This document shows, in pieces, positions 10,994-62,674 of a stretch of 64,000 bases of DNA. Location: the sequence record PZ445450.1. One strand, 5' to 3'. The DNA comes from a phage. A program made the translations under genes and the position numbers. The notes beneath the pieces are model-generated. The model did no database searches. It had not been told where the DNA came from and saw nothing but the letters and a program-made list of their open reading frames with translations. Position 1 is the first letter of the stretch. Each line of letters begins with the position of its first letter.

Positions 10994-11419
10994 ATGATCT
11001 ATGAAATGCCAAAACTGATTCGTGACGATGCCCAAAACGCTCACACCATTATTATGGGCAAACGCATGGATATTATTTGTCATAAAGATTTCTGGGAAGG
11101 AAGTTACTTCACAGAGTATTTTGGTAAACTGGACAATGGTCTGCTGATCCAGTTCTACACCGATGCGGAAAACAACATTCACTGGGAGTTCGAAACTGAA
11201 GATATCCATAAACTTTTCACCTTCCTCGGTATTAAGGTTGAGGCCAAGTTTGAAGAAGGTGAGTGCGACGATTGTGGATTCTATGAGGTAACAGATTTCT
11301 ACCTTCCAAGTGGTAAAAATCTCTACTACGAAAGCCACTTCGGCAACTCAAATATGCCACAGGGTTGGGATGAGTTTTTGGAAATTGCAGAAGAGGAGCT
11401 GGAATACCGTGATTATTGA
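10994..11419 (+). CDS. Hypothetical protein
   Basis: GGAGA RBS; 141 aa. Confidence 0.5.
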   Translation: MIYEMPKLIRDDAQNAHTIIMGKRMDIICHKDFWEGSYFTEYFGKLDNGLLIQFYTDAENNIHWEFETEDIHKLFTFLGIKVEAKFEEGECDDCGFYEVTDFYLPSGKNLYYESHFGNSNMPQGWDEFLEIAEEELEYRDY

Positions 11420-11867
11420 TACTGTAAAGGGAGATCTAATCTCCATTTTCAAGAAAGGGTCAGGCCACATGATCCACGGTTGTAACTGCTTTCACACAAT
11501 GGGTGCAGGTATAGCGAAAGATATTGCCCGTGAGTTCCCTCAAGCACTGGCAGCCGACAAAGAGACTGCTTATGGTAATCTAGACAAGCTGGGTATGTTT
11601 TCTTGTTGGGAGCATTTTGCCAAGGCCAGGGTCGTATATGGAATCAACCTGTATACCCAGTTCTACCCAGGGCCCAATGCTGAATACTTCTCAATCATGA
11701 AAGGTTTTGAGCGAGTCAACGAGGTATTCAAAGGTATGTCATTGCCGTTCTACATTCCTAAAATCGGATGCGGTATTGGAGGTCTAAAGTGGGAACATGT
11801 AGAAGATGTAATTAATCTTGCAACCACAGATATTGATGTGGTTGTAGTAGAGTACAAAAAGTGTTGA
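11409..11867 (+). CDS. Macro-domain (ADP-ribose-binding/processing) protein
   Basis: GDLISIF..HGCNCFHTMGAGIA and IPKIGCGIGG glycine motifs; start set at GTG 11409 after GAGGAG RBS. Confidence 0.6.
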   Translation: MIIDTVKGDLISIFKKGSGHMIHGCNCFHTMGAGIAKDIAREFPQALAADKETAYGNLDKLGMFSCWEHFAKARVVYGINLYTQFYPGPNAEYFSIMKGFERVNEVFKGMSLPFYIPKIGCGIGGLKWEHVEDVINLATTDIDVVVVEYKKC

Positions 11868-55565: not shown

Positions 55566-56045
55566 TTAATCCAGTACTGTGCCTCCGGCTTTTCGGAAGA
55601 CGTCCAGCATCTTCTCTATGTTTTCTACACGCTGATCATACAGTTTACCAGCCCCCGGTGGTGGTGGGAAACTTGCCCAACGGCTACGGCATTTATAGAT
55701 AGCTGAACGGATCCTTCCTTCATAAATGTCATCAAGGGCTTTACATTCGCGGATCAACTGTTTTGCTATGGCATCCTGACTTGCCGGACCAAAATCTCTT
55801 AAGCCAAGCTGCTTCATGTAATGCTTAGCGTATTTCTCCAGAATTTGGTATCTGCCAAATGCTGAAGAGGTAAGGCCTGGTCTTAATTTGACATAAATAC
55901 CGGGATGCCTGCTGAGATCCTCTATGTATTTTCCACCAACAAGGATGTGGTACGAAGCATCTTCGCCACCATACCTGTCAGTACCTTCTGAATGTGAAAT
56001 CATCGAAAAAAATGCTCTCAATTGTACATTTTTATCTAGCTTCAT
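55566..56045 (-). CDS. Endolysin, lambda R-like lytic transglycosylase
   Basis: Aligns along its length with lambda R (AFLDMLAWSEGTD..., GRYQ, FSPKSQD); ours AFFSMISHSEGTD...GRYQ...FGPASQD. Confidence 0.85.
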   Translation of the reverse strand: MKLDKNVQLRAFFSMISHSEGTDRYGGEDASYHILVGGKYIEDLSRHPGIYVKLRPGLTSSAFGRYQILEKYAKHYMKQLGLRDFGPASQDAIAKQLIRECKALDDIYEGRIRSAIYKCRSRWASFPPPPGAGKLYDQRVENIEKMLDVFRKAGGTVLD

Positions 56046-56758
56046 TTAAACCTCCGATTAAACCACTCTTCCAACGAATCATCATGTTTTGCATATTCTG
56101 CGGATTTTCTGACGCATACAGCATCCCACCACTCCGTGTATTGCCCCAAATGATACCTTTTGCTGTTTTCAGCAATCTGAACTTGCCACTTGTCAGTATC
56201 GTGTCTCCATTTAACACCTGTACACCCAGATGTGTTATTAAGTTTTAGTATTTTGCCTTTATAAGTACCTGAAACTAGCTGTTTTCTTGCCTCTACAGCC
56301 TCATCTTTGGTCTTAAAGTACCCAGCAAACCTATCTCCTTCGAGGGTGTTATATACTGCATACCATAAACCACATTTCTTATAAACGCCTAAGTTACCGT
56401 GCGGGTTATTTTTCGGGAGTAAATTATTTCTTATGCGGTCCTTGTTGTTATCACTGTAGGTGCCCATAGAAAGATTTTCTATATTATCCTGGCCTTTTAT
56501 ATCATTTAAATGCCTGACAAGAAAGTTTTTTGTTAAAGAGTTATAAAACATGTCGTAAATAATTCTATGACGCTTCTTATCACCACCTTTATGAGAGTTG
56601 ATTATAACATACCCTTGTGCATCATTACAACCAGCTTTTGTGCCAGCTTTTATGAAGAGTTGATTTTTACCTCGGCCTCTATAATGATTCTTTGTCCAAA
56701 CTAGCTCCCCATCTTTGTACCAAAATGCAAAATTATCATTGAAGAAGAAATTAATCAT
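56042..56758 (-). CDS. HNH homing endonuclease with two AP2 DNA-binding domains
   Basis: HNH_3 pattern GYVIINSH...RHRIIYDMF...VRHLNDIKGQDNIENL; AP2-like GVYKK.GLWYA and GVKWRHDTDKWQVQI. Confidence 0.8.
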   Translation of the reverse strand: MINFFFNDNFAFWYKDGELVWTKNHYRGRGKNQLFIKAGTKAGCNDAQGYVIINSHKGGDKKRHRIIYDMFYNSLTKNFLVRHLNDIKGQDNIENLSMGTYSDNNKDRIRNNLLPKNNPHGNLGVYKKCGLWYAVYNTLEGDRFAGYFKTKDEAVEARKQLVSGTYKGKILKLNNTSGCTGVKWRHDTDKWQVQIAENSKRYHLGQYTEWWDAVCVRKSAEYAKHDDSLEEWFNRRFK

Positions 56759-56911: not shown

Positions 56912-58195
56912 TCATTCCAGCACCTCCCAAGTGTCTGGGTCAACATTTCGGACGCAGATACCGACAGGGAATTGGTAGTTGTTGTCTTCTGTCCTTGATT
57001 GATATTTGAAGGTGACAAACTTGCCGATCATTTCCTGCATCCTGTCATAGCTACGCTCCTCGTGCGTGCCTTTCATCTTCATTTTAACAACTATACCTTC
57101 CTTGTCAACGCAGATAAGAACACCTTCATCATTCTTATCTTTCTCAACGTCAATAACTTTCACCTCAGCATCGTTGAACTTTTTCCATTTCAATGCTTCA
57201 GATGTTCGCTGACCATATTCATATTTACCACAGAAGTTACGCATGATAGTACCTTCATATCCTTCGGACATGAATACACCAACAGATTCTTCGCAATGAT
57301 CAACTGTGTACGCAAGCTCTGCGTCAACAACCTTGATATGGTCAAGCATCAGGGTGGTAATGGTATCTTCTGCATCCATAAGATCCTTGCATCGTCCAGA
57401 TTCTGTTTCCGGATCCCACCATACCTTGTCACTAGGAATGTCGAAAATATGATACTCTAAGTCATAGCTACAGTACCCTCCGTAACGCAAATCATCACGA
57501 ACAGGCTCAACATCAACAGGAATATCTACCTTATTGAAGTTTTTGTATGTTGATAAGCCTGCCTTAATTGCGGCATGACGGCGTTTTTTATCTGCCTCGT
57601 AGTCTTTATCGATCTCGGCCTGAATCTCTTCCTGTGTGCGCCAACGTTTAGCAAGAGACACTATTTTCTGCAGAGGCAGACCATGAATATAGATCTCTCC
57701 GTCGAGCTGTTTAATCCCGGTGGTGAAGTGGAAAGAACGAAGTTGCTCCAGAAGCTTTCCTTGAATAGGGTAGGACTTATTACCACGGGAAATAAATTTA
57801 GGCTCACCGTTTTGGAAAACAACCAGTAGACGAAGGCCATCTAACTTACGCAAGATCCAGCAGGGTAATTTAAGTGCCTTTCCACGCTTCAGGTAGTCAT
57901 GCACCAGCATGGGTAAAAGGTCAACACCCTGCTCGCAATCTTCCATATTTTCAACATACCCCAGACGGACTTGTTTTTCCCACTTACTGATCGCTTCCAG
58001 CTCAGCCTGTTGCTCAGCTGTAGTTTCATTGGCACGGCCCACGTTCTTAGGTGTGCAGATCGTCTCTTTGTATTGCAGTTTACCATCAAGCTTGCCAAAC
58101 TCTACGATAACCTTATCACCATCCGTGAATACTTTCCACTGTTGGTAGCTGCCATCTTTGTTCAGTGCGTACAGTGTTGTTTTGATCTGATGCAT
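56912..58195 (-). CDS. ATP-dependent DNA ligase
   Basis: Motif I LRKLDGLR (KxDG); motif III LDGEIYIHG; motif IV EGTIMR; motif V LKWKK. Confidence 0.8.
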   Translation of the reverse strand: MHQIKTTLYALNKDGSYQQWKVFTDGDKVIVEFGKLDGKLQYKETICTPKNVGRANETTAEQQAELEAISKWEKQVRLGYVENMEDCEQGVDLLPMLVHDYLKRGKALKLPCWILRKLDGLRLLVVFQNGEPKFISRGNKSYPIQGKLLEQLRSFHFTTGIKQLDGEIYIHGLPLQKIVSLAKRWRTQEEIQAEIDKDYEADKKRRHAAIKAGLSTYKNFNKVDIPVDVEPVRDDLRYGGYCSYDLEYHIFDIPSDKVWWDPETESGRCKDLMDAEDTITTLMLDHIKVVDAELAYTVDHCEESVGVFMSEGYEGTIMRNFCGKYEYGQRTSEALKWKKFNDAEVKVIDVEKDKNDEGVLICVDKEGIVVKMKMKGTHEERSYDRMQEMIGKFVTFKYQSRTEDNNYQFPVGICVRNVDPDTWEVLE

Positions 58196-58464
58196 TACTC
58201 GGCCTCTTCCTTAAAAATTTTAAACATCTCTTCTTTGCTCATTACCAACCAGTCTCCCATAAAGTCAACTAGCCAATCTCCCTGGTACAAGACAAGGTTA
58301 CCAAAAGGCTCGACAAGCTCACACATGCGACGAAGATCTCTGGTCCGAACAGGTGACGATGTAAACACACCTGTATCAATCCACCGTTGCAGATCAGATA
58401 CTGATGAAGAGCTTCCGTCAAACTGATGTGCTTCTACAGGTTTAGCAAGATTAAATAACGGCAT
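58195..58464 (-). CDS. Hypothetical protein
   Basis: 89 aa ORF; start overlaps the stop of the upstream gene. Confidence 0.45.
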   Translation of the reverse strand: MPLFNLAKPVEAHQFDGSSSSVSDLQRWIDTGVFTSSPVRTRDLRRMCELVEPFGNLVLYQGDWLVDFMGDWLVMSKEEMFKIFKEEAE

Positions 58465-58759
58465 TGCAGTCCTCCTTCTGTAGTAGGTCTTTTATAGGAT
58501 AAACAAGTAAGTGTGGGTCGTAATAACGTATAGTCCTATTCTGCCACACTATGAACTTTATTACAACCAAATTTACAATATCTTTATCACCATGTAGCCC
58601 AACACACACATTTGTCCATATTTTGTGGTTGAAGACCTTGCTATCGATGTAGATTTTAGTGTCAAACTTATCTTCCATTCTACCAATAAGTTTGATCAGC
58701 TCCTTCATCTGGTCGCCAAACACAGCATCTTTTTCAAGATCTCTGGAATGCTTGTACAT
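58451..58759 (-). CDS. Hypothetical protein
   Basis: 102 aa ORF. Confidence 0.45.
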   Translation of the reverse strand: MYKHSRDLEKDAVFGDQMKELIKLIGRMEDKFDTKIYIDSKVFNHKIWTNVCVGLHGDKDIVNLVVIKFIVWQNRTIRYYDPHLLVYPIKDLLQKEDCNAVI

Positions 58760-58785: not shown

Positions 58786-58816
58786 CATAATAAGTAAAGC
58801 CGGGTAATCCCGGCTA
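58786..58816 (-). terminator. Rho-independent terminator
   Basis: agccgggattacccggct plus T-rich tail on the - strand. Confidence 0.55.
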
Positions 58817-58821
58817 TGTTG

Positions 58822-59535
58822 TTAAATATACTCTGTTACATCCTTGAAGCTCGAAGGCTTCATAATCTTACCTTTACTGTCAAGGAATATAATAACTTTA
58901 TTGCCGTTGTAGAACTCCTCTTTAGCAACGAAACCTTCGTAGCGACCACCAAAACGACGCTCAAGATCTTTAATCTCCAACTCGATGAGTTGTTCAGCAG
59001 GCATATCTGCACTGGCACCGTGTGAATGCCGTAGATGGTTGATCCGTGCAAACTTACTGTCATTAGATTTTAGAACCTTCCGCATCATCCCACACACATC
59101 CCCGCTAAGCTGGAACAGTAAAGCTGTTGATAACTCCGCTAGTCGGTAAGCTGACGCTCTTTGCTTGGATGTGTTTTTCGCAGCGATCAGTGTATCATAG
59201 AACTCACCGATCTTGAACTTAAGACCTCGCGGATTATCAAACAGGTTTGACCACTTTTCGTGGTTATCATTAACAAGATAAGCTGCATAACTTGTGACAA
59301 CGTGAAGATCGCAGGCCTCTTTTAGCAGGTGATCTCCACCATCACCTTTCTCCAGCTCTTCCAAAACCTCATTGAACTCTTCCTCAATGAAGCTAAGCTG
59401 TAATTCGAATGGTGTGTATGATTTTTTCACTTTAGCTGCCACACGGTTCCAGTTTTCCACCCAGTTGGCAGACCAAAGGTAGTTTTCAGGCTGGGACAGT
59501 TTTTCCAGGTTGTCGATCAGTTTAGTATTCAGCAT
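58822..59535 (-). CDS. MazG-like nucleotide pyrophosphohydrolase (putative)
   Basis: FIEEEFNEVLEELEKGD fits the E..E...E..D all-alpha NTP-PPase motif; remainder unassigned. Confidence 0.35.
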   Translation of the reverse strand: MLNTKLIDNLEKLSQPENYLWSANWVENWNRVAAKVKKSYTPFELQLSFIEEEFNEVLEELEKGDGGDHLLKEACDLHVVTSYAAYLVNDNHEKWSNLFDNPRGLKFKIGEFYDTLIAAKNTSKQRASAYRLAELSTALLFQLSGDVCGMMRKVLKSNDSKFARINHLRHSHGASADMPAEQLIELEIKDLERRFGGRYEGFVAKEEFYNGNKVIIFLDSKGKIMKPSSFKDVTEYI

Positions 59536-59548
59536 TAAAGGTCTCCTT

Positions 59549-60310
59549 TTAAAGTTCCATAAAGTTTTCTACAGTTTCAATAAATGCTTTATCAGAGAAA
59601 GCGTCAACAGCACCGTTAAACCATACAGGGATCCCGCGATCCTCATATTGATAAAGGTCGCTACGTGAAATGCCACTTCCATCTGCACTCTGCGAATCAT
59701 ACTTGTTTACAATCAGCAGTTTTGTGCCTTTACAAGTAGCAGGAAACAATTCCCAGTTAAAATTAATAACTGTGTTAGAACAACCTACCAGGATCACCAT
59801 ATCATTGCTTGTGAGAGATGTCAACAGGTCATACATGTCTGTATACTTAGGAGCAACCTCACCGAAGAACACTACATTGGGCTTAACCCAGGTATACTTG
59901 CCTGTATCTACCTCCGTGTATCCGATATTTTTAATTACATCATTACCTTCAGCATCTTCGTAGGTGATTTCAGGCAAATACCCGTGGACATGTAAAATAT
60001 CTTCATGTTTTACACCAGCACGCTCCAGCAAATCATCTACATTGGTAGTAAGGTTGATCACACGACCAGACCAGCGGGAATACCACTCAGCGATCCGAAG
60101 ATGTGCAAGGTTAGGATCAACACTGCCCAGAGCTACACGACGTGCATTGTAAAAGTCATGCACCTTATAGTAGTTCTTGGCAAAGGTGTGGATGTTGCAC
60201 ACCTCATCGATGCTGAAATTCTCCCACATTGCAGTGCTACCAGATCGGAAAGTGGGAATACCAGATTCAGCGCTCAAACCAGCACCGGAGATAATAATCA
60301 GTCGTCGCAT
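59549..60310 (-). CDS. Sir2 (sirtuin) family NAD-dependent enzyme
   Basis: GAGLSAESGIPTFR, TTNVDDLLERAG, HVHG, PNVVFFGE and VGCSNTV motifs; no CxxC...CxxC zinc module. Confidence 0.75.
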   Translation of the reverse strand: MRRLIIISGAGLSAESGIPTFRSGSTAMWENFSIDEVCNIHTFAKNYYKVHDFYNARRVALGSVDPNLAHLRIAEWYSRWSGRVINLTTNVDDLLERAGVKHEDILHVHGYLPEITYEDAEGNDVIKNIGYTEVDTGKYTWVKPNVVFFGEVAPKYTDMYDLLTSLTSNDMVILVGCSNTVINFNWELFPATCKGTKLLIVNKYDSQSADGSGISRSDLYQYEDRGIPVWFNGAVDAFSDKAFIETVENFMEL

Positions 60311-60318
60311 AAGTGTCC

Positions 60319-60699
60319 TCAGTAGATGTTTTGTTTAATCTCTATTCCAAACTTCTTGAATGAGTCAGCAGCAAGCATAAATTTACGAGCTGCCGATGGA
60401 TTAGAAGTATGCACGAAAATAATCACGTTGTCAATAAGTGGTGGCTTTCCGAATACAAGTTTCTCCTCTAGCGCAGAGAAGCAGTCGTACCCTTCAAGCA
60501 CTTCACCTAGATCATTGTCAAAATGCCACTCAGAAACGCTCCTGTAGAGCTTTCTATTATCGTTAATAAAATCCATGAACTCAGAAGAGTTCTTCAGCCA
60601 AAGAGCATCTTGGATTCCGTAATTTGACGGATCTCTCAAGTCATCTAGCCACACAATCAACTTCTTCATTGCATATAGTCCTCGTTGTGAAAATAGCAA
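60319..60699 (-). CDS. Hypothetical protein
   Basis: 126 aa ORF lying between the Sir2 and ligase-like genes. Confidence 0.45.
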   Translation of the reverse strand: MLFSQRGLYAMKKLIVWLDDLRDPSNYGIQDALWLKNSSEFMDFINDNRKLYRSVSEWHFDNDLGEVLEGYDCFSALEEKLVFGKPPLIDNVIIFVHTSNPSAARKFMLAADSFKKFGIEIKQNIY

Positions 60700-61583
60700 T
60701 CAAGTATCTCACGGCGTTCCTGCTCCAGGAGGCAGTTCCACACATCTTCTGTGTAATTGCTACGAATGAAGTTTACCATGCCATAAAACTCTTCGTCAAT
60801 ACGTTTAAAGATATCATCATCCCAAATCTTCCAAGCTTTACCCCTCATTACGGCCTTCCGTGCCAAATAGTATGGAGACTTGATCTTCAGCTGCAGGTCA
60901 TAAGGGTAGTAAGGCTTACGGATCATATACCCTTCGCCCCTTGTTTCTGCAGCTAATTCTTTTGCATAGCTGAACGGGATTTCACGCACAGTGTGAGGAC
61001 GTTTTGCACCAAGGTATTTGGCAATTCCATCTAAAGCTGCTTCTGGTAGCATTATTCCAGAATCATTATATCTGCAACCTATCAAATATGCGCCATGGTC
61101 TTCTTGAACAATATGCGGATCTGAAGGGTGACAAATTTCAAACATGAATGTCATGTTTTCATTGCCCATAACCTTCTTGATAAGATCTAAATTACCACAT
61201 TGCTCTTGGATGGTTTCCTTTGCAAGGTTACAATATGGAGAATCAAGAGACCCGGTTGTTGAGAACAATAGGTCACCTTTATGAGATGATACCACACCAA
61301 GGAATCCGTTCTTTTTCTCTACCGCAGTCACAAGCTTATTGTCAGGCAGGTTGGTGGAGTTTTCTCCCAAGTTAAACACTTTTGTGAAGGGCCATGCCAC
61401 AACATTTCCTTCATTACCTACAACAATGCCTCGGCACTCCAGTAAACGAGGGGACAAATGCCATAAATTGTTGTAAAATACTTTTCTAGCATATTTATAG
61501 ATCTTTAACCCGAGATCTGGGTAATACCTACTGGTTACAAGACCTTTGTCAACTAGGTCGTCTGCATTAAAATACTTCATCAT
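60666..61583 (-). CDS. RNA ligase-like nucleotidyltransferase (Rnl2-like motifs)
   Basis: Motif I VEKKNGF (KxNG), motif IV EGYMIRKPYYP, motif V LKIKSP, compared with T4 Rnl2 EKIHGTN / EGYVLKP / IKCKN; GAGGA RBS. Confidence 0.55.
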   Translation of the reverse strand: MMKYFNADDLVDKGLVTSRYYPDLGLKIYKYARKVFYNNLWHLSPRLLECRGIVVGNEGNVVAWPFTKVFNLGENSTNLPDNKLVTAVEKKNGFLGVVSSHKGDLLFSTTGSLDSPYCNLAKETIQEQCGNLDLIKKVMGNENMTFMFEICHPSDPHIVQEDHGAYLIGCRYNDSGIMLPEAALDGIAKYLGAKRPHTVREIPFSYAKELAAETRGEGYMIRKPYYPYDLQLKIKSPYYLARKAVMRGKAWKIWDDDIFKRIDEEFYGMVNFIRSNYTEDVWNCLLEQERREILDCYFHNEDYMQ

Positions 61584-61701
61584 ACGTTCCTCATTTGTCA
61601 TTTTGTCAGTCTATCCTGTCACACAAATAACCTAGTGTCAACACTTGAAATTAACAAAACAGTTAGATATACTATCGTTGAAATTAAAACGGAGGGTCAC
61701 T

Positions 61702-62112
61702 ATGTCTAAAATGCTATATATCGTGCGTGGTCTACCAGGGTCTGGCAAATCAACACTGGCAAATGCGCTATCTTTAGAGGGTCTGTATCCACATTTTGAG
61801 AAAGACATGTTCTGGTATGACGATGACGGCAATTACAACTGGGATGCAAGTAAAGTAACACTCGCAGCGAAATGGTGCAAAGATAACGTAGAAGATATGA
61901 TGCGTATGGGATACGACCGTATCGTGGTAAGTAATACGTTTACAAAAGAAAAACATGTGCAGGAATATGTTGACATGGCAATCAGTCATGGGTATAGTTA
62001 TACCGTGATCGTGGTTGAAAACCGCCACGGTAATAAAAGCATTCATGATGTTCCAGACAAGGTTGTGGATCGTATGGAACGCCAGCTTAAAAACTGCATT
62101 AAACTTAAATGA
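61702..62112 (+). CDS. Polynucleotide 5'-kinase (T4 Pnk kinase-domain-like)
   Basis: P-loop GLPGSGKST; VVSNTF matches Pnk IISDTNL; VPDKVVDRMERQL matches Pnk VPIDVLRSMYKSM; GGAGGG RBS. Confidence 0.7.
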   Translation: MSKMLYIVRGLPGSGKSTLANALSLEGLYPHFEKDMFWYDDDGNYNWDASKVTLAAKWCKDNVEDMMRMGYDRIVVSNTFTKEKHVQEYVDMAISHGYSYTVIVVENRHGNKSIHDVPDKVVDRMERQLKNCIKLK

Positions 62113-62119
62113 GGAATGT

Positions 62120-62674
62120 ATGAAATACTTTGTAACAAGCGACACACACTTTCTCCACCAGCGGGTCATGGAGTTTGATTCATGTCAAAAACACAGATCT
62201 CAGTATGATCACAATCTTGACAGTATGAATGCGGGAATCATCGCCGAATGGAACTCTGTTGTGTCACCTGCAGACACTGTGTTCCACTTGGGAGATATTG
62301 CGTGCACTAATGATAAGAATATCAACAACTTACTTCCAGATATTCTAAATATGTTGAACGGACATATTATTCTTGTTCGTGGCAACCATGACACAAGGAC
62401 GACTGTCAGAATTATGAAAGAGTTCGGTCATGAGGTTGTAGATTATTACGAGCTTCGCCACAACAAGAATTTGATCTGTATGAGCCATTACCAATTTGCA
62501 AAGTGGAACAGAAAGCCTCACGGATCAGTCCAACTGTTCGGTCATGCTCACGGAACCACACAACAGTTGTTTGGCAGGCAGCTTGATGTCGGTTGGGATG
62601 TGTGGGGGAGACTCTTACCATTAGAAGAGGCATACCGTATTGCAATGAGTTTTGCTATTGACAGCGGGGAGTAA
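62120..62674 (+). CDS. Calcineurin-like metallophosphoesterase
   Basis: VTSDTHF, HLGDI, RGNHD and GHAH motifs; GAGGAA RBS; start refined to ATG 62120. Confidence 0.75.
   Translation: MKYFVTSDTHFLHQRVMEFDSCQKHRSQYDHNLDSMNAGIIAEWNSVVSPADTVFHLGDIACTNDKNINNLLPDILNMLNGHIILVRGNHDTRTTVRIMKEFGHEVVDYYELRHNKNLICMSHYQFAKWNRKPHGSVQLFGHAHGTTQQLFGRQLDVGWDVWGRLLPLEEAYRIAMSFAIDSGE

Follow-up and report, generated by a model that had tools for sequence, protein, structure and literature searches.

A zinc-less sirtuin among the predicted RNA-repair genes of a Vequintavirus, with a possible role as their NAD+-dependent step

What does a sirtuin do among the predicted RNA-repair genes of a phage? The question is raised by an open reading frame (ORF) at positions 59549-60310 on the minus strand of sequence record PZ445450.1, a 64,000-nucleotide (nt) stretch of phage DNA that is referred to here as the window. 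The ORF was predicted to encode a Sir2-family protein of 253 amino acids (aa) that lacks a zinc site, and its neighbors include ORFs annotated as coding for RNA-end-processing enzymes. The window belongs to a Vequintavirus (rV5-like myophage); the 2.85 kb around the sirtuin gene were 99.8 to 99.9% identical to Escherichia phages I29, AlexBoehm (Bas56), MaxTheCat, and A6-1 and 90 to 99% identical to 120 phage records. The interpretation to which we tentatively lean, at a confidence somewhat short of probable, is that the protein is an active, nicotinamide adenine dinucleotide (NAD+)-consuming member of a zinc-less phage sirtuin clade and provides the NAD+-dependent step of a phage heal-and-seal module for RNA, probably tRNA. 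The gene context favors RNA repair, and the sequence and predicted fold equally allow a protein deacylase.

The predicted protein matched Pfam SIR2 (PF02146; E = 6.9e-28; 98.2 bits against a cut-off of 24), with residues 9 to 181 covering positions 1 to 178 of the 180-position model, and PHROG 2162 (E = 1.5e-108). These matches bore out the Sir2-family identity proposed in an earlier note on this DNA, which was made from the sequence alone, and the ORF positions given there were confirmed. The same note had credited the protein with every core sirtuin motif; most were intact, but TQNID read TTNVD and GTS read GCS. Among the 120 closest homologues, drawn from a search of 5.8 billion proteins, F21/R22, N90, D92, H109, F148-F149-E151, G176/S178, and N202 were invariant, and G9-A10-G11 and S13 were nearly so. 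The catalytic His, the possible loss of which the note had raised, was thus retained (His109, invariant in 120/120 and aligned with that of CobB). The Gln of TQNID (Q129 in CobB and Q140 in SIRT5, with the numbering fixed from PDB entries carrying I131C and Q140L) was an invariant Thr in the clade.

The GAGxS, FR, N, D, catalytic His, FGE, GxS, and YxxR elements are common to the phage sirtuin and the class III deacylases (Escherichia coli CobB, A. fulgidus Sir2Af1, human SIRT5, and P. falciparum Sir2A). The string FYNARR is the same as in CobB, and the invariant Y54/R57 pair corresponds to Y92/R95 of CobB, as confirmed by the Y92A substitution carried by PDB entry 6rxs, and to Y102/R105 of SIRT5. 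In class III sirtuins such as SIRT5 and CobB, the YxxR pair recognizes anionic or acidic acyl groups, so that by analogy the phage pair could bind phosphate.

Whereas canonical sirtuins (classes I to IV and U) carry a Cys4 zinc module, the phage sirtuin has none. It contains three cysteines (C38, C177, and C193), and residues 111 to 146, which aligned to the cysteine loop of CobB (RC...KCHCC) and to the CxxC...CxxC of Sir2Af2, hold neither Cys nor His. The absence of a zinc ribbon, noticed earlier in this one protein, was therefore substantiated, and it extended to its relatives: the corresponding insert contained zero to two Cys residues in all 120 homologues and was 32 to 40 aa long in 119 of them (50 aa in the other one). 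Loss of the zinc site is thus a feature of the clade and not a sequencing accident, and the alignments indicate that the zinc ligands were lost clade-wide while the segment itself was kept. In an AlphaFold2 model of the sirtuin (72 sequences; predicted local distance difference test [pLDDT] score, 90.5; predicted template modeling [TM] score, 0.89), a three-stranded sheet was kept at the position of the zinc module (residues 110-118, 124-128, and 142-146; pLDDT, about 95).

Foldseek searches with the model returned E. coli CobB first (E = 2e-18; TM score, about 0.75), followed by Sir2Af1 and SIRT5. In a structural ranking of the model against known sirtuins, the values were 22.2 for Sir2Af1, 20.1 for PfSir2A, 18.4 for Hst2 and SIRT2, 18.1 for SIRT1, 18.0 for SIRT4, 15.5 for SirTM, and 14.8 for SIRT6, with PsSIR2 (13.4), HerA-Sir2 (12.4), KomC (12.3), ThsA (12.0), and Avs5 (9.8) at the lower end. 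The comparison with CobB, SirTM, and ThsA-type domains that the earlier note had recommended thus placed the protein nearest the class III deacylases (CobB, Sir2Af1, and SIRT5) and not SirTM or the defense NADases; as a result obtained with a predicted structure, the ranking disfavors the NADase and SirTM types. The phage protein is a genuine sirtuin, nearest the class III deacylases, and represents a separate zinc-less subfamily. A homologue belonging to this clade was detected in 1011 of 50,697 phage records (tblastn). When 185,579 cellular species genomes were scanned for the clade motifs, one phage-like contig from a metagenome-assembled genome was recovered, the other match being a canonical zinc-containing sirtuin, and the clade appears phage restricted and almost absent from cellular genomes.

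The genes around the sirtuin gene provided the main indication of its function. Four ORFs form a tight run on the minus strand. The first of them (60666-61601) was predicted to encode an Rnl1-family RNA ligase of 311 aa (Pfam RNA_lig_T4_1, PF09511, E = 1.1e-14; PHROG 562, E = 7e-66), which is annotated as "RNA ligase" in AlexBoehm. This ligase (isoelectric point [pI], 6.0) is distant from T4 Rnl1, scoring 38.7 bits against a cut-off of 242 with the NCBIfam T4 RnlA model, and phmmer returned no meaningful match for it among PDB sequences. The second ORF, which the earlier note had listed as an unknown ORF of 126 aa, was instead found to encode a cyclic-phosphate-processing receiver-like (cREC) protein (Pfam cREC_REC, PF20274; E = 6.4e-14; 52.8 bits against a cut-off of 27). 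The 126-aa reading is the maximal, TTG-started frame (60319-60699). The likeliest start of the cREC protein is the ATG at 60669, which gives 116 aa (60319-60669) and would couple its translation to that of the upstream RNA ligase, because this ATG overlaps the TGA of the ligase as ATGA in the DNA and the same start is annotated in AlexBoehm. D9, D10, D51 (within HFDNDLGE), S89, and K96 were invariant in eight cREC homologues, in which the adjacent T88 was T or S, and these residues make up the full active-site set of a receiver (Rec-type) domain.

The sirtuin ORF is the third of the run, with a GAGGA Shine-Dalgarno sequence lying across the cREC stop codon, 5 nt ahead of the sirtuin ATG. The fourth (58822-59535) was predicted to encode a protein of 237 aa with a conserved C-terminal extension, resembling all-alpha nucleoside triphosphate (NTP) pyrophosphohydrolases. 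The earlier note had called this neighbor MazG-like; the adjacent ORF is there, and its product matched PHROG 671 ("nucleotide pyrophosphohydrolase"; E = 1.9e-21) and carried an EEExxE...D motif (invariant E52, E53, E56, and D76), which makes assignment to the MazG superfamily plausible but not firm. Its profile matched the phosphoribosyl-ATP pyrophosphatase (HisE) 1yvw weakly (E = 0.027), and no match to it was found in Pfam, NCBIfam, or PADLOC. Directly 3' of its stop codon lies a GC-rich, terminator-like hairpin on the same strand (58798-58815; a 7-pair stem with 6 G-C pairs), which is the probable 3' end of the unit, although it is a consensus match only and terminator-like sites in the region were no commoner than in shuffled sequences. 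The ATGA overlap, the Shine-Dalgarno sequence, and the hairpin after the fourth gene make the four genes look like a single transcription unit. A scan of the minus strand upstream of the ligase for sigma-70 promoters revealed no convincing site.

Two further ORFs diverge from this run on the plus strand. The one at 61702-62112 was predicted to encode a P-loop polynucleotide kinase-like protein of 136 aa from its annotated ATG (Pfam AAA_33, E = 9e-11; PHROG 2071 and PHROG 505 ["polynucleotide kinase"]; "polynucleotide kinase" in AlexBoehm), and it consists of the kinase domain alone, with no fused phosphatase. The other, at 62120-62674, was predicted to encode a calcineurin-like metallophosphoesterase of 184 aa (Pfam Metallophos_2 and Metallophos; PHROG 547, E = 1.4e-52; "putative phosphoesterase" in AlexBoehm). 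No tRNA genes were found within the window; in the AlexBoehm annotation, a cluster of them (Arg, Tyr, Lys, Thr, Ile, and Pro) lies just past the window end, about 3 kb beyond the phosphoesterase gene.

The neighborhood was compared across 59 loci obtained with a motif-based scan of IMG/VR, in which ORFs were clustered and searched with the window proteins. In V5-like and Mydo-like phages (140 to 150 kb), the sirtuin occurred with the phosphoesterase, RNA ligase, cREC protein, kinase, DNA ligase, and MazG-like protein, and about 13 Mydo-like and related loci shared the gene set of the window, with proteins 28 to 63% identical. T5-like phages, T5 among them, had another arrangement, in which a HAD_SAK_2 "Swiss-army-knife RNA repair" phosphatase (PF18143; E = 4e-20) came after the sirtuin, together with two tandem DUF7415 proteins. 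The HAD_SAK_2 family was present in 28 of the 59 loci, and the T5-like arrangement was kept in about 28 to 31; the T5 orthologue (loci L003 and L061; 56516-58997 of the record) is 57% identical and is annotated as "cobb, putative transferase." The earlier placement of the sirtuin beside RNA-repair genes therefore held beyond this phage, as the association recurs in unrelated lineages (V5/Mydo-like and T5-like). That RNA-end-processing partners recur in two or more lineages, whose gene orders differ, supports the RNA-repair model.

Two other contexts were encountered. In phi92-like phages (about 150 kb), the neighbors were members of PHROGs of no assigned function, DUF7275/7277 proteins, and a methyltransferase-like protein. 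In T4-like and other large-phage contigs, the sirtuin gene lay directly beside a NAMPT gene (L059, 4066-5490; L062, 4086-5528 and 2664-3158; L060, 1037-2497), and in the T4-like contig L062 it was also near genes for NADAR, EndoVII, and NrdD. The presence of NAMPT beside clade members in L059 and L062 fits an enzyme that uses NAD+ and releases nicotinamide. A search of the window and of the remainder of AlexBoehm for NAMPT or NADAR homologues found none.

In the pathway that these genes suggest, a host metal-independent nuclease would leave 2',3'-cyclic-phosphate and 5'-OH ends, the kinase would phosphorylate the 5'-OH, cREC and/or the metallophosphoesterase would open the 2',3'-cyclic phosphate, and the Rnl1-family ligase would seal the break. 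The sirtuin would then use NAD+ to ADP-ribosylate the RNA 2'-phosphate that remains, which is the Tpt1/KptA reaction on another fold, and cREC and the MazG-like pyrophosphatase would degrade the by-product of the sirtuin step. We infer the substrate (RNA 2'-phosphate), the order of the steps, and the roles of the accessory enzymes. In sirtuins and Tpt1 alike, an oxygen nucleophile attacks C1'' of NAD+, and the ribose O2'' then attacks an acyl or phosphoryl center. This chemical parallel, which we infer from established mechanisms, would support the RNA-repair model by analogy. Tpt1/KptA also adjoins RNA ligase, kinase, and cyclic-phosphodiesterase functions, as the phage sirtuin does. However, Tpt1/KptA belongs to the ADP-ribosyltransferase (ART) superfamily, with an unrelated fold, whereas the only Pfam family of the phage sirtuin is SIR2, so that the analogy would be one of function. 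That a sirtuin-fold enzyme acts here on nucleic acid, by Tpt1-like removal of RNA 2'-phosphates or by another transfer of ADP-ribose to RNA ends in tRNA repair, convergent with ART-fold KptA/Tpt1, is possible, and we hold it with clear doubt.

The RNA-repair hypothesis itself was first published by others. Iyer, Burroughs, Anantharaman, and Aravind (2022; Viruses 14:1977; PMC9503650, section 3.7.3) described a type 2 phage RNA-repair sirtuin neighborhood, with Escherichia phage V5 and Proteus phage Mydo as prototypes, and suggested a KptA/Tpt1-like removal of RNA 2'-phosphates by the sirtuin. Their V5 neighborhood comprises a T4-like RNA ligase, cREC, the sirtuin, a MazG-superfamily pyrophosphatase, a nucleotide kinase, and a calcineurin-like phosphoesterase. 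All six genes are also in the window, within 58822-62674, with the MazG assignment the weakest and no substantive difference between the two. The same authors distinguished a third, T5-like type that has a HAD phosphatase (PMC9503650), and the definition of cRec, as an enzyme predicted to process cyclic phosphates and linked to RNA ligases, goes back to Iyer et al. (2021; PMC7824862). No statement on the missing zinc site was found in PMC9503650, and a literature search on zinc-less sirtuins yielded nothing usable. The NARP3 paper (PMC13464706) was set aside as a source, as it concerns a host Sir2-HerA system and a T5-like NadR/PnuC pair.

The phage T4 Pnkp-Rnl1 system, which counters the PrrC anticodon nuclease, offers a second point of comparison. 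A 5'-kinase, an Rnl1-family ligase, and presumed tRNA restoration are common to both; in the window, however, the kinase has no fused HAD phosphatase, the ligase is a distant one, and a metallophosphoesterase, cREC, the sirtuin, and the MazG-like protein are additional.

Several observations weigh against a role of the sirtuin in RNA repair. The protein is acidic (pI, 4.9; net charge, about -12), as is its clade (median pI, 5.1), which is unusual for an RNA-binding enzyme, and the clade retains every feature of the class III protein deacylases. The kinase, metallophosphoesterase, and ligase could finish a repair of the T4 or Clostridium type without a 2'-phosphate step, and the E. coli host already has KptA. 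About 12 phi92-like loci carried the sirtuin without RNA-repair neighbors, with cREC and ligase genes about 32 kb away, and in L060 (6001-8626) the sirtuin gene occurred with a DNA ligase gene and with no RNA ligase gene within 6 kb. Common descent, and not selection, may account for the synteny in V5- and Mydo-like phages. Literature searches turned up no experimental work on phage sirtuins of this clade.

The acidity of the clade, its class III features, the possibility of repair without the sirtuin, and the lineages without RNA-repair neighbors together make a protein lysine deacylase a serious rival. The protein would in that case be a CobB- or SIRT5-like deacetylase or desuccinylase acting on host or phage proteins during infection, with possible targets among the active-site or regulatory lysines of the neighboring adenylate-forming RNA and DNA ligases or in host acetylation-based control. 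The invariant YxxR pair, catalytic His, and VVFFGE loop are those expected of such an enzyme, its acidic pI suits an enzyme directed at proteins, and the gene is repeatedly found beside that for an ATP-dependent DNA ligase, also in loci that have no RNA ligase close by. The comparison with known class III deacylases, however, also revealed differences. All NCBIfam CobB/deacylase models scored far below their cut-offs (NF001753, the best, 122.6 bits against 243; NF040867 CobB, 104 against 320), the zinc module, which forms half of the peptide-binding cleft, has no metal site clade-wide, and the Gln that contacts the ribose is replaced by Thr. The clade is, moreover, phage restricted and set in an RNA-repair context, and its recurring partners are RNA-end- and nucleotide-processing enzymes and not acyltransferases. 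On this balance, deacylation of proteins is considered somewhat unlikely.

The adjacent predicted cyclic-phosphate hydrolase and nucleotide pyrophosphohydrolase could instead point to a sirtuin that acts on small ADP-ribose- or NAD-derived nucleotides and, with cREC and the MazG-like protein, makes or destroys a nucleotide signal or reshapes NAD+ metabolites as a counter-defense. No class III-like sirtuin is known to use a small molecule as its acceptor; the sole partial exception known to us is the disputed phosphoribosyltransferase activity of CobB. Such a function would also leave the RNA ligase and kinase of the cluster unexplained, and it is regarded as improbable, even though NAMPT and NADAR genes lie beside clade members in T4-like contigs and both cREC-Nudix fusions and a role in ADPr>P degradation have been predicted (PMC9503650, PMC7824862).

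Depletion of host NAD+ for host shut-off or superinfection exclusion, in the manner of the defense SIR2 effectors, is very unlikely. The phage sirtuin has the SIR2 fold and NAD+ use in common with the defense NADases (ThsA, DSR, SIR2-HerA, KomC, and Avs5) and with SirTM-macro systems, N90 and H109 are conserved, and KomBC also pairs SIR2 with an NTP pyrophosphatase. To our knowledge, the defense SIR2 NADases likewise lack the zinc module, and since the Vequintavirus has no NAMPT homologue, nicotinamide recycling would be no constraint on an NADase. Unlike those systems, however, the phage sirtuin matched no PADLOC defense model and has neither a sensor or regulatory domain nor an adjacent macro gene. 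A constitutive NADase would starve the metabolism of the phage itself, and the adjacency of NAMPT in relatives points to recycling and not to depletion.

The slimmest chance is given to deacylation of RNA-linked substrates (N-acetyl-aminoacyl-tRNA produced by GNAT toxins, or N4-acetylcytidine), a tRNA repair without end healing that we suggest from the deacylase-like active site, the tRNA-repair-type context, and the tRNA cluster downstream of the phosphoesterase gene in AlexBoehm, and which is purely speculative, has no aminoacyl-tRNA-specific neighbor, and is opposed, as is a role in RNA repair, by an acidic surface charge that argues against tRNA binding.

A macro-domain gene at 11409-11867 on the plus strand had been suggested in the earlier note to process an ADP-ribose-derived product of the sirtuin. 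The macro domain was confirmed (Pfam Macro; E = 8e-6, which passes the cut-off), but the partnership was not supported. The gene lies on the opposite strand, 48 kb from the sirtuin gene, within a separate set of small genes that follows the DNA polymerase gene, and its best named relatives are DarG antitoxin macro domains (NCBIfam antitoxin_DarG, E = 4.8e-12; PADLOC DarG, E = 8.8e-13); it was accordingly rejected as a sirtuin partner. RNA-repair sirtuins are not coupled to an adjacent macro gene in the published survey (PMC9503650). In AlexBoehm, the gene is bas56_0089, annotated just as "hypothetical protein." The DarG-like macro protein could be a phage counter-defense that strips DarT-type ADP-ribose from DNA.

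Downstream of the four-gene run, the conserved neighbor at 56912-58195 (minus strand) was predicted to encode an ATP-dependent DNA ligase of 427 aa (Pfam DNA_ligase_A_M and OB_2; PHROG 114). The sirtuin gene repeatedly adjoined an ATP-dependent DNA ligase gene (L060 and the Mydo-like loci L023-L031), and this adjacency could reflect a functional partnership of the two or simply an inherited gene order. Between the hairpin and the DNA ligase gene lie two small, overlapping, conserved ORFs of 89 and 102 aa (58195-58464 and 58451-58759, minus strand; PHROGs 14585 and 7684), both of which accompany the cluster in Mydo-like phages (31 to 47% identity). Between the DNA ligase gene and that for an endolysin (55566-56045) is an ORF predicted to encode an HNH homing endonuclease (56042-56758, minus strand; 238 aa; Pfam HNH_3; PHROG 99). 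AlexBoehm has a gap of 124 nt at this position, and in the window the HNH ORF appears to be a mobile insertion of some 740 nt. GC skew changed sign at about 28 to 30 kb of the window and again near 61.6 kb, where the minus-strand ligase unit gives way to the divergent kinase gene on the plus strand. Among the GenBank records, 18 to 25 "Campylobacter phage" entries (MG0656xx) were 96 to 100% identical to E. coli Vequintavirus over the sirtuin region, and the Sir2 protein of "Campylobacter phage" C14 is identical; the host names given in these records look doubtful.

The phage, the annotation of the gene, its neighborhood, and the leading hypothesis are already public, the last as a computational prediction, and near-identical phage records annotate the gene as "Sir2-like" or "sirtuin domain NAD-dependent deacetylase." What is added here is modest: the loss of the zinc ligands throughout the clade alongside a retained beta-sheet, the Gln-to-Thr replacement, the structural ranking, and the ATGA coupling and terminator-like end of the unit. 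The NAMPT-linked and RNA-repair-free contexts temper the published model.

The clade is present in about 2% of sequenced phage genomes, including those of T5, rV5-like therapeutic candidates, and phages of the BASEL collection. If the RNA-repair prediction is true, sirtuin chemistry would reach into RNA repair, and the clade would provide a second, convergent enzyme for 2'-phosphate removal; it would also explain the resistance of these phages to tRNA-cleaving defenses. A sirtuin that acts on nucleic acid would give cREC its first biochemical role, as the hydrolase of a cyclic-phosphate by-product. Should the enzyme prove to be a deacylase, it would be a rare case of a phage rewriting host protein acylation.

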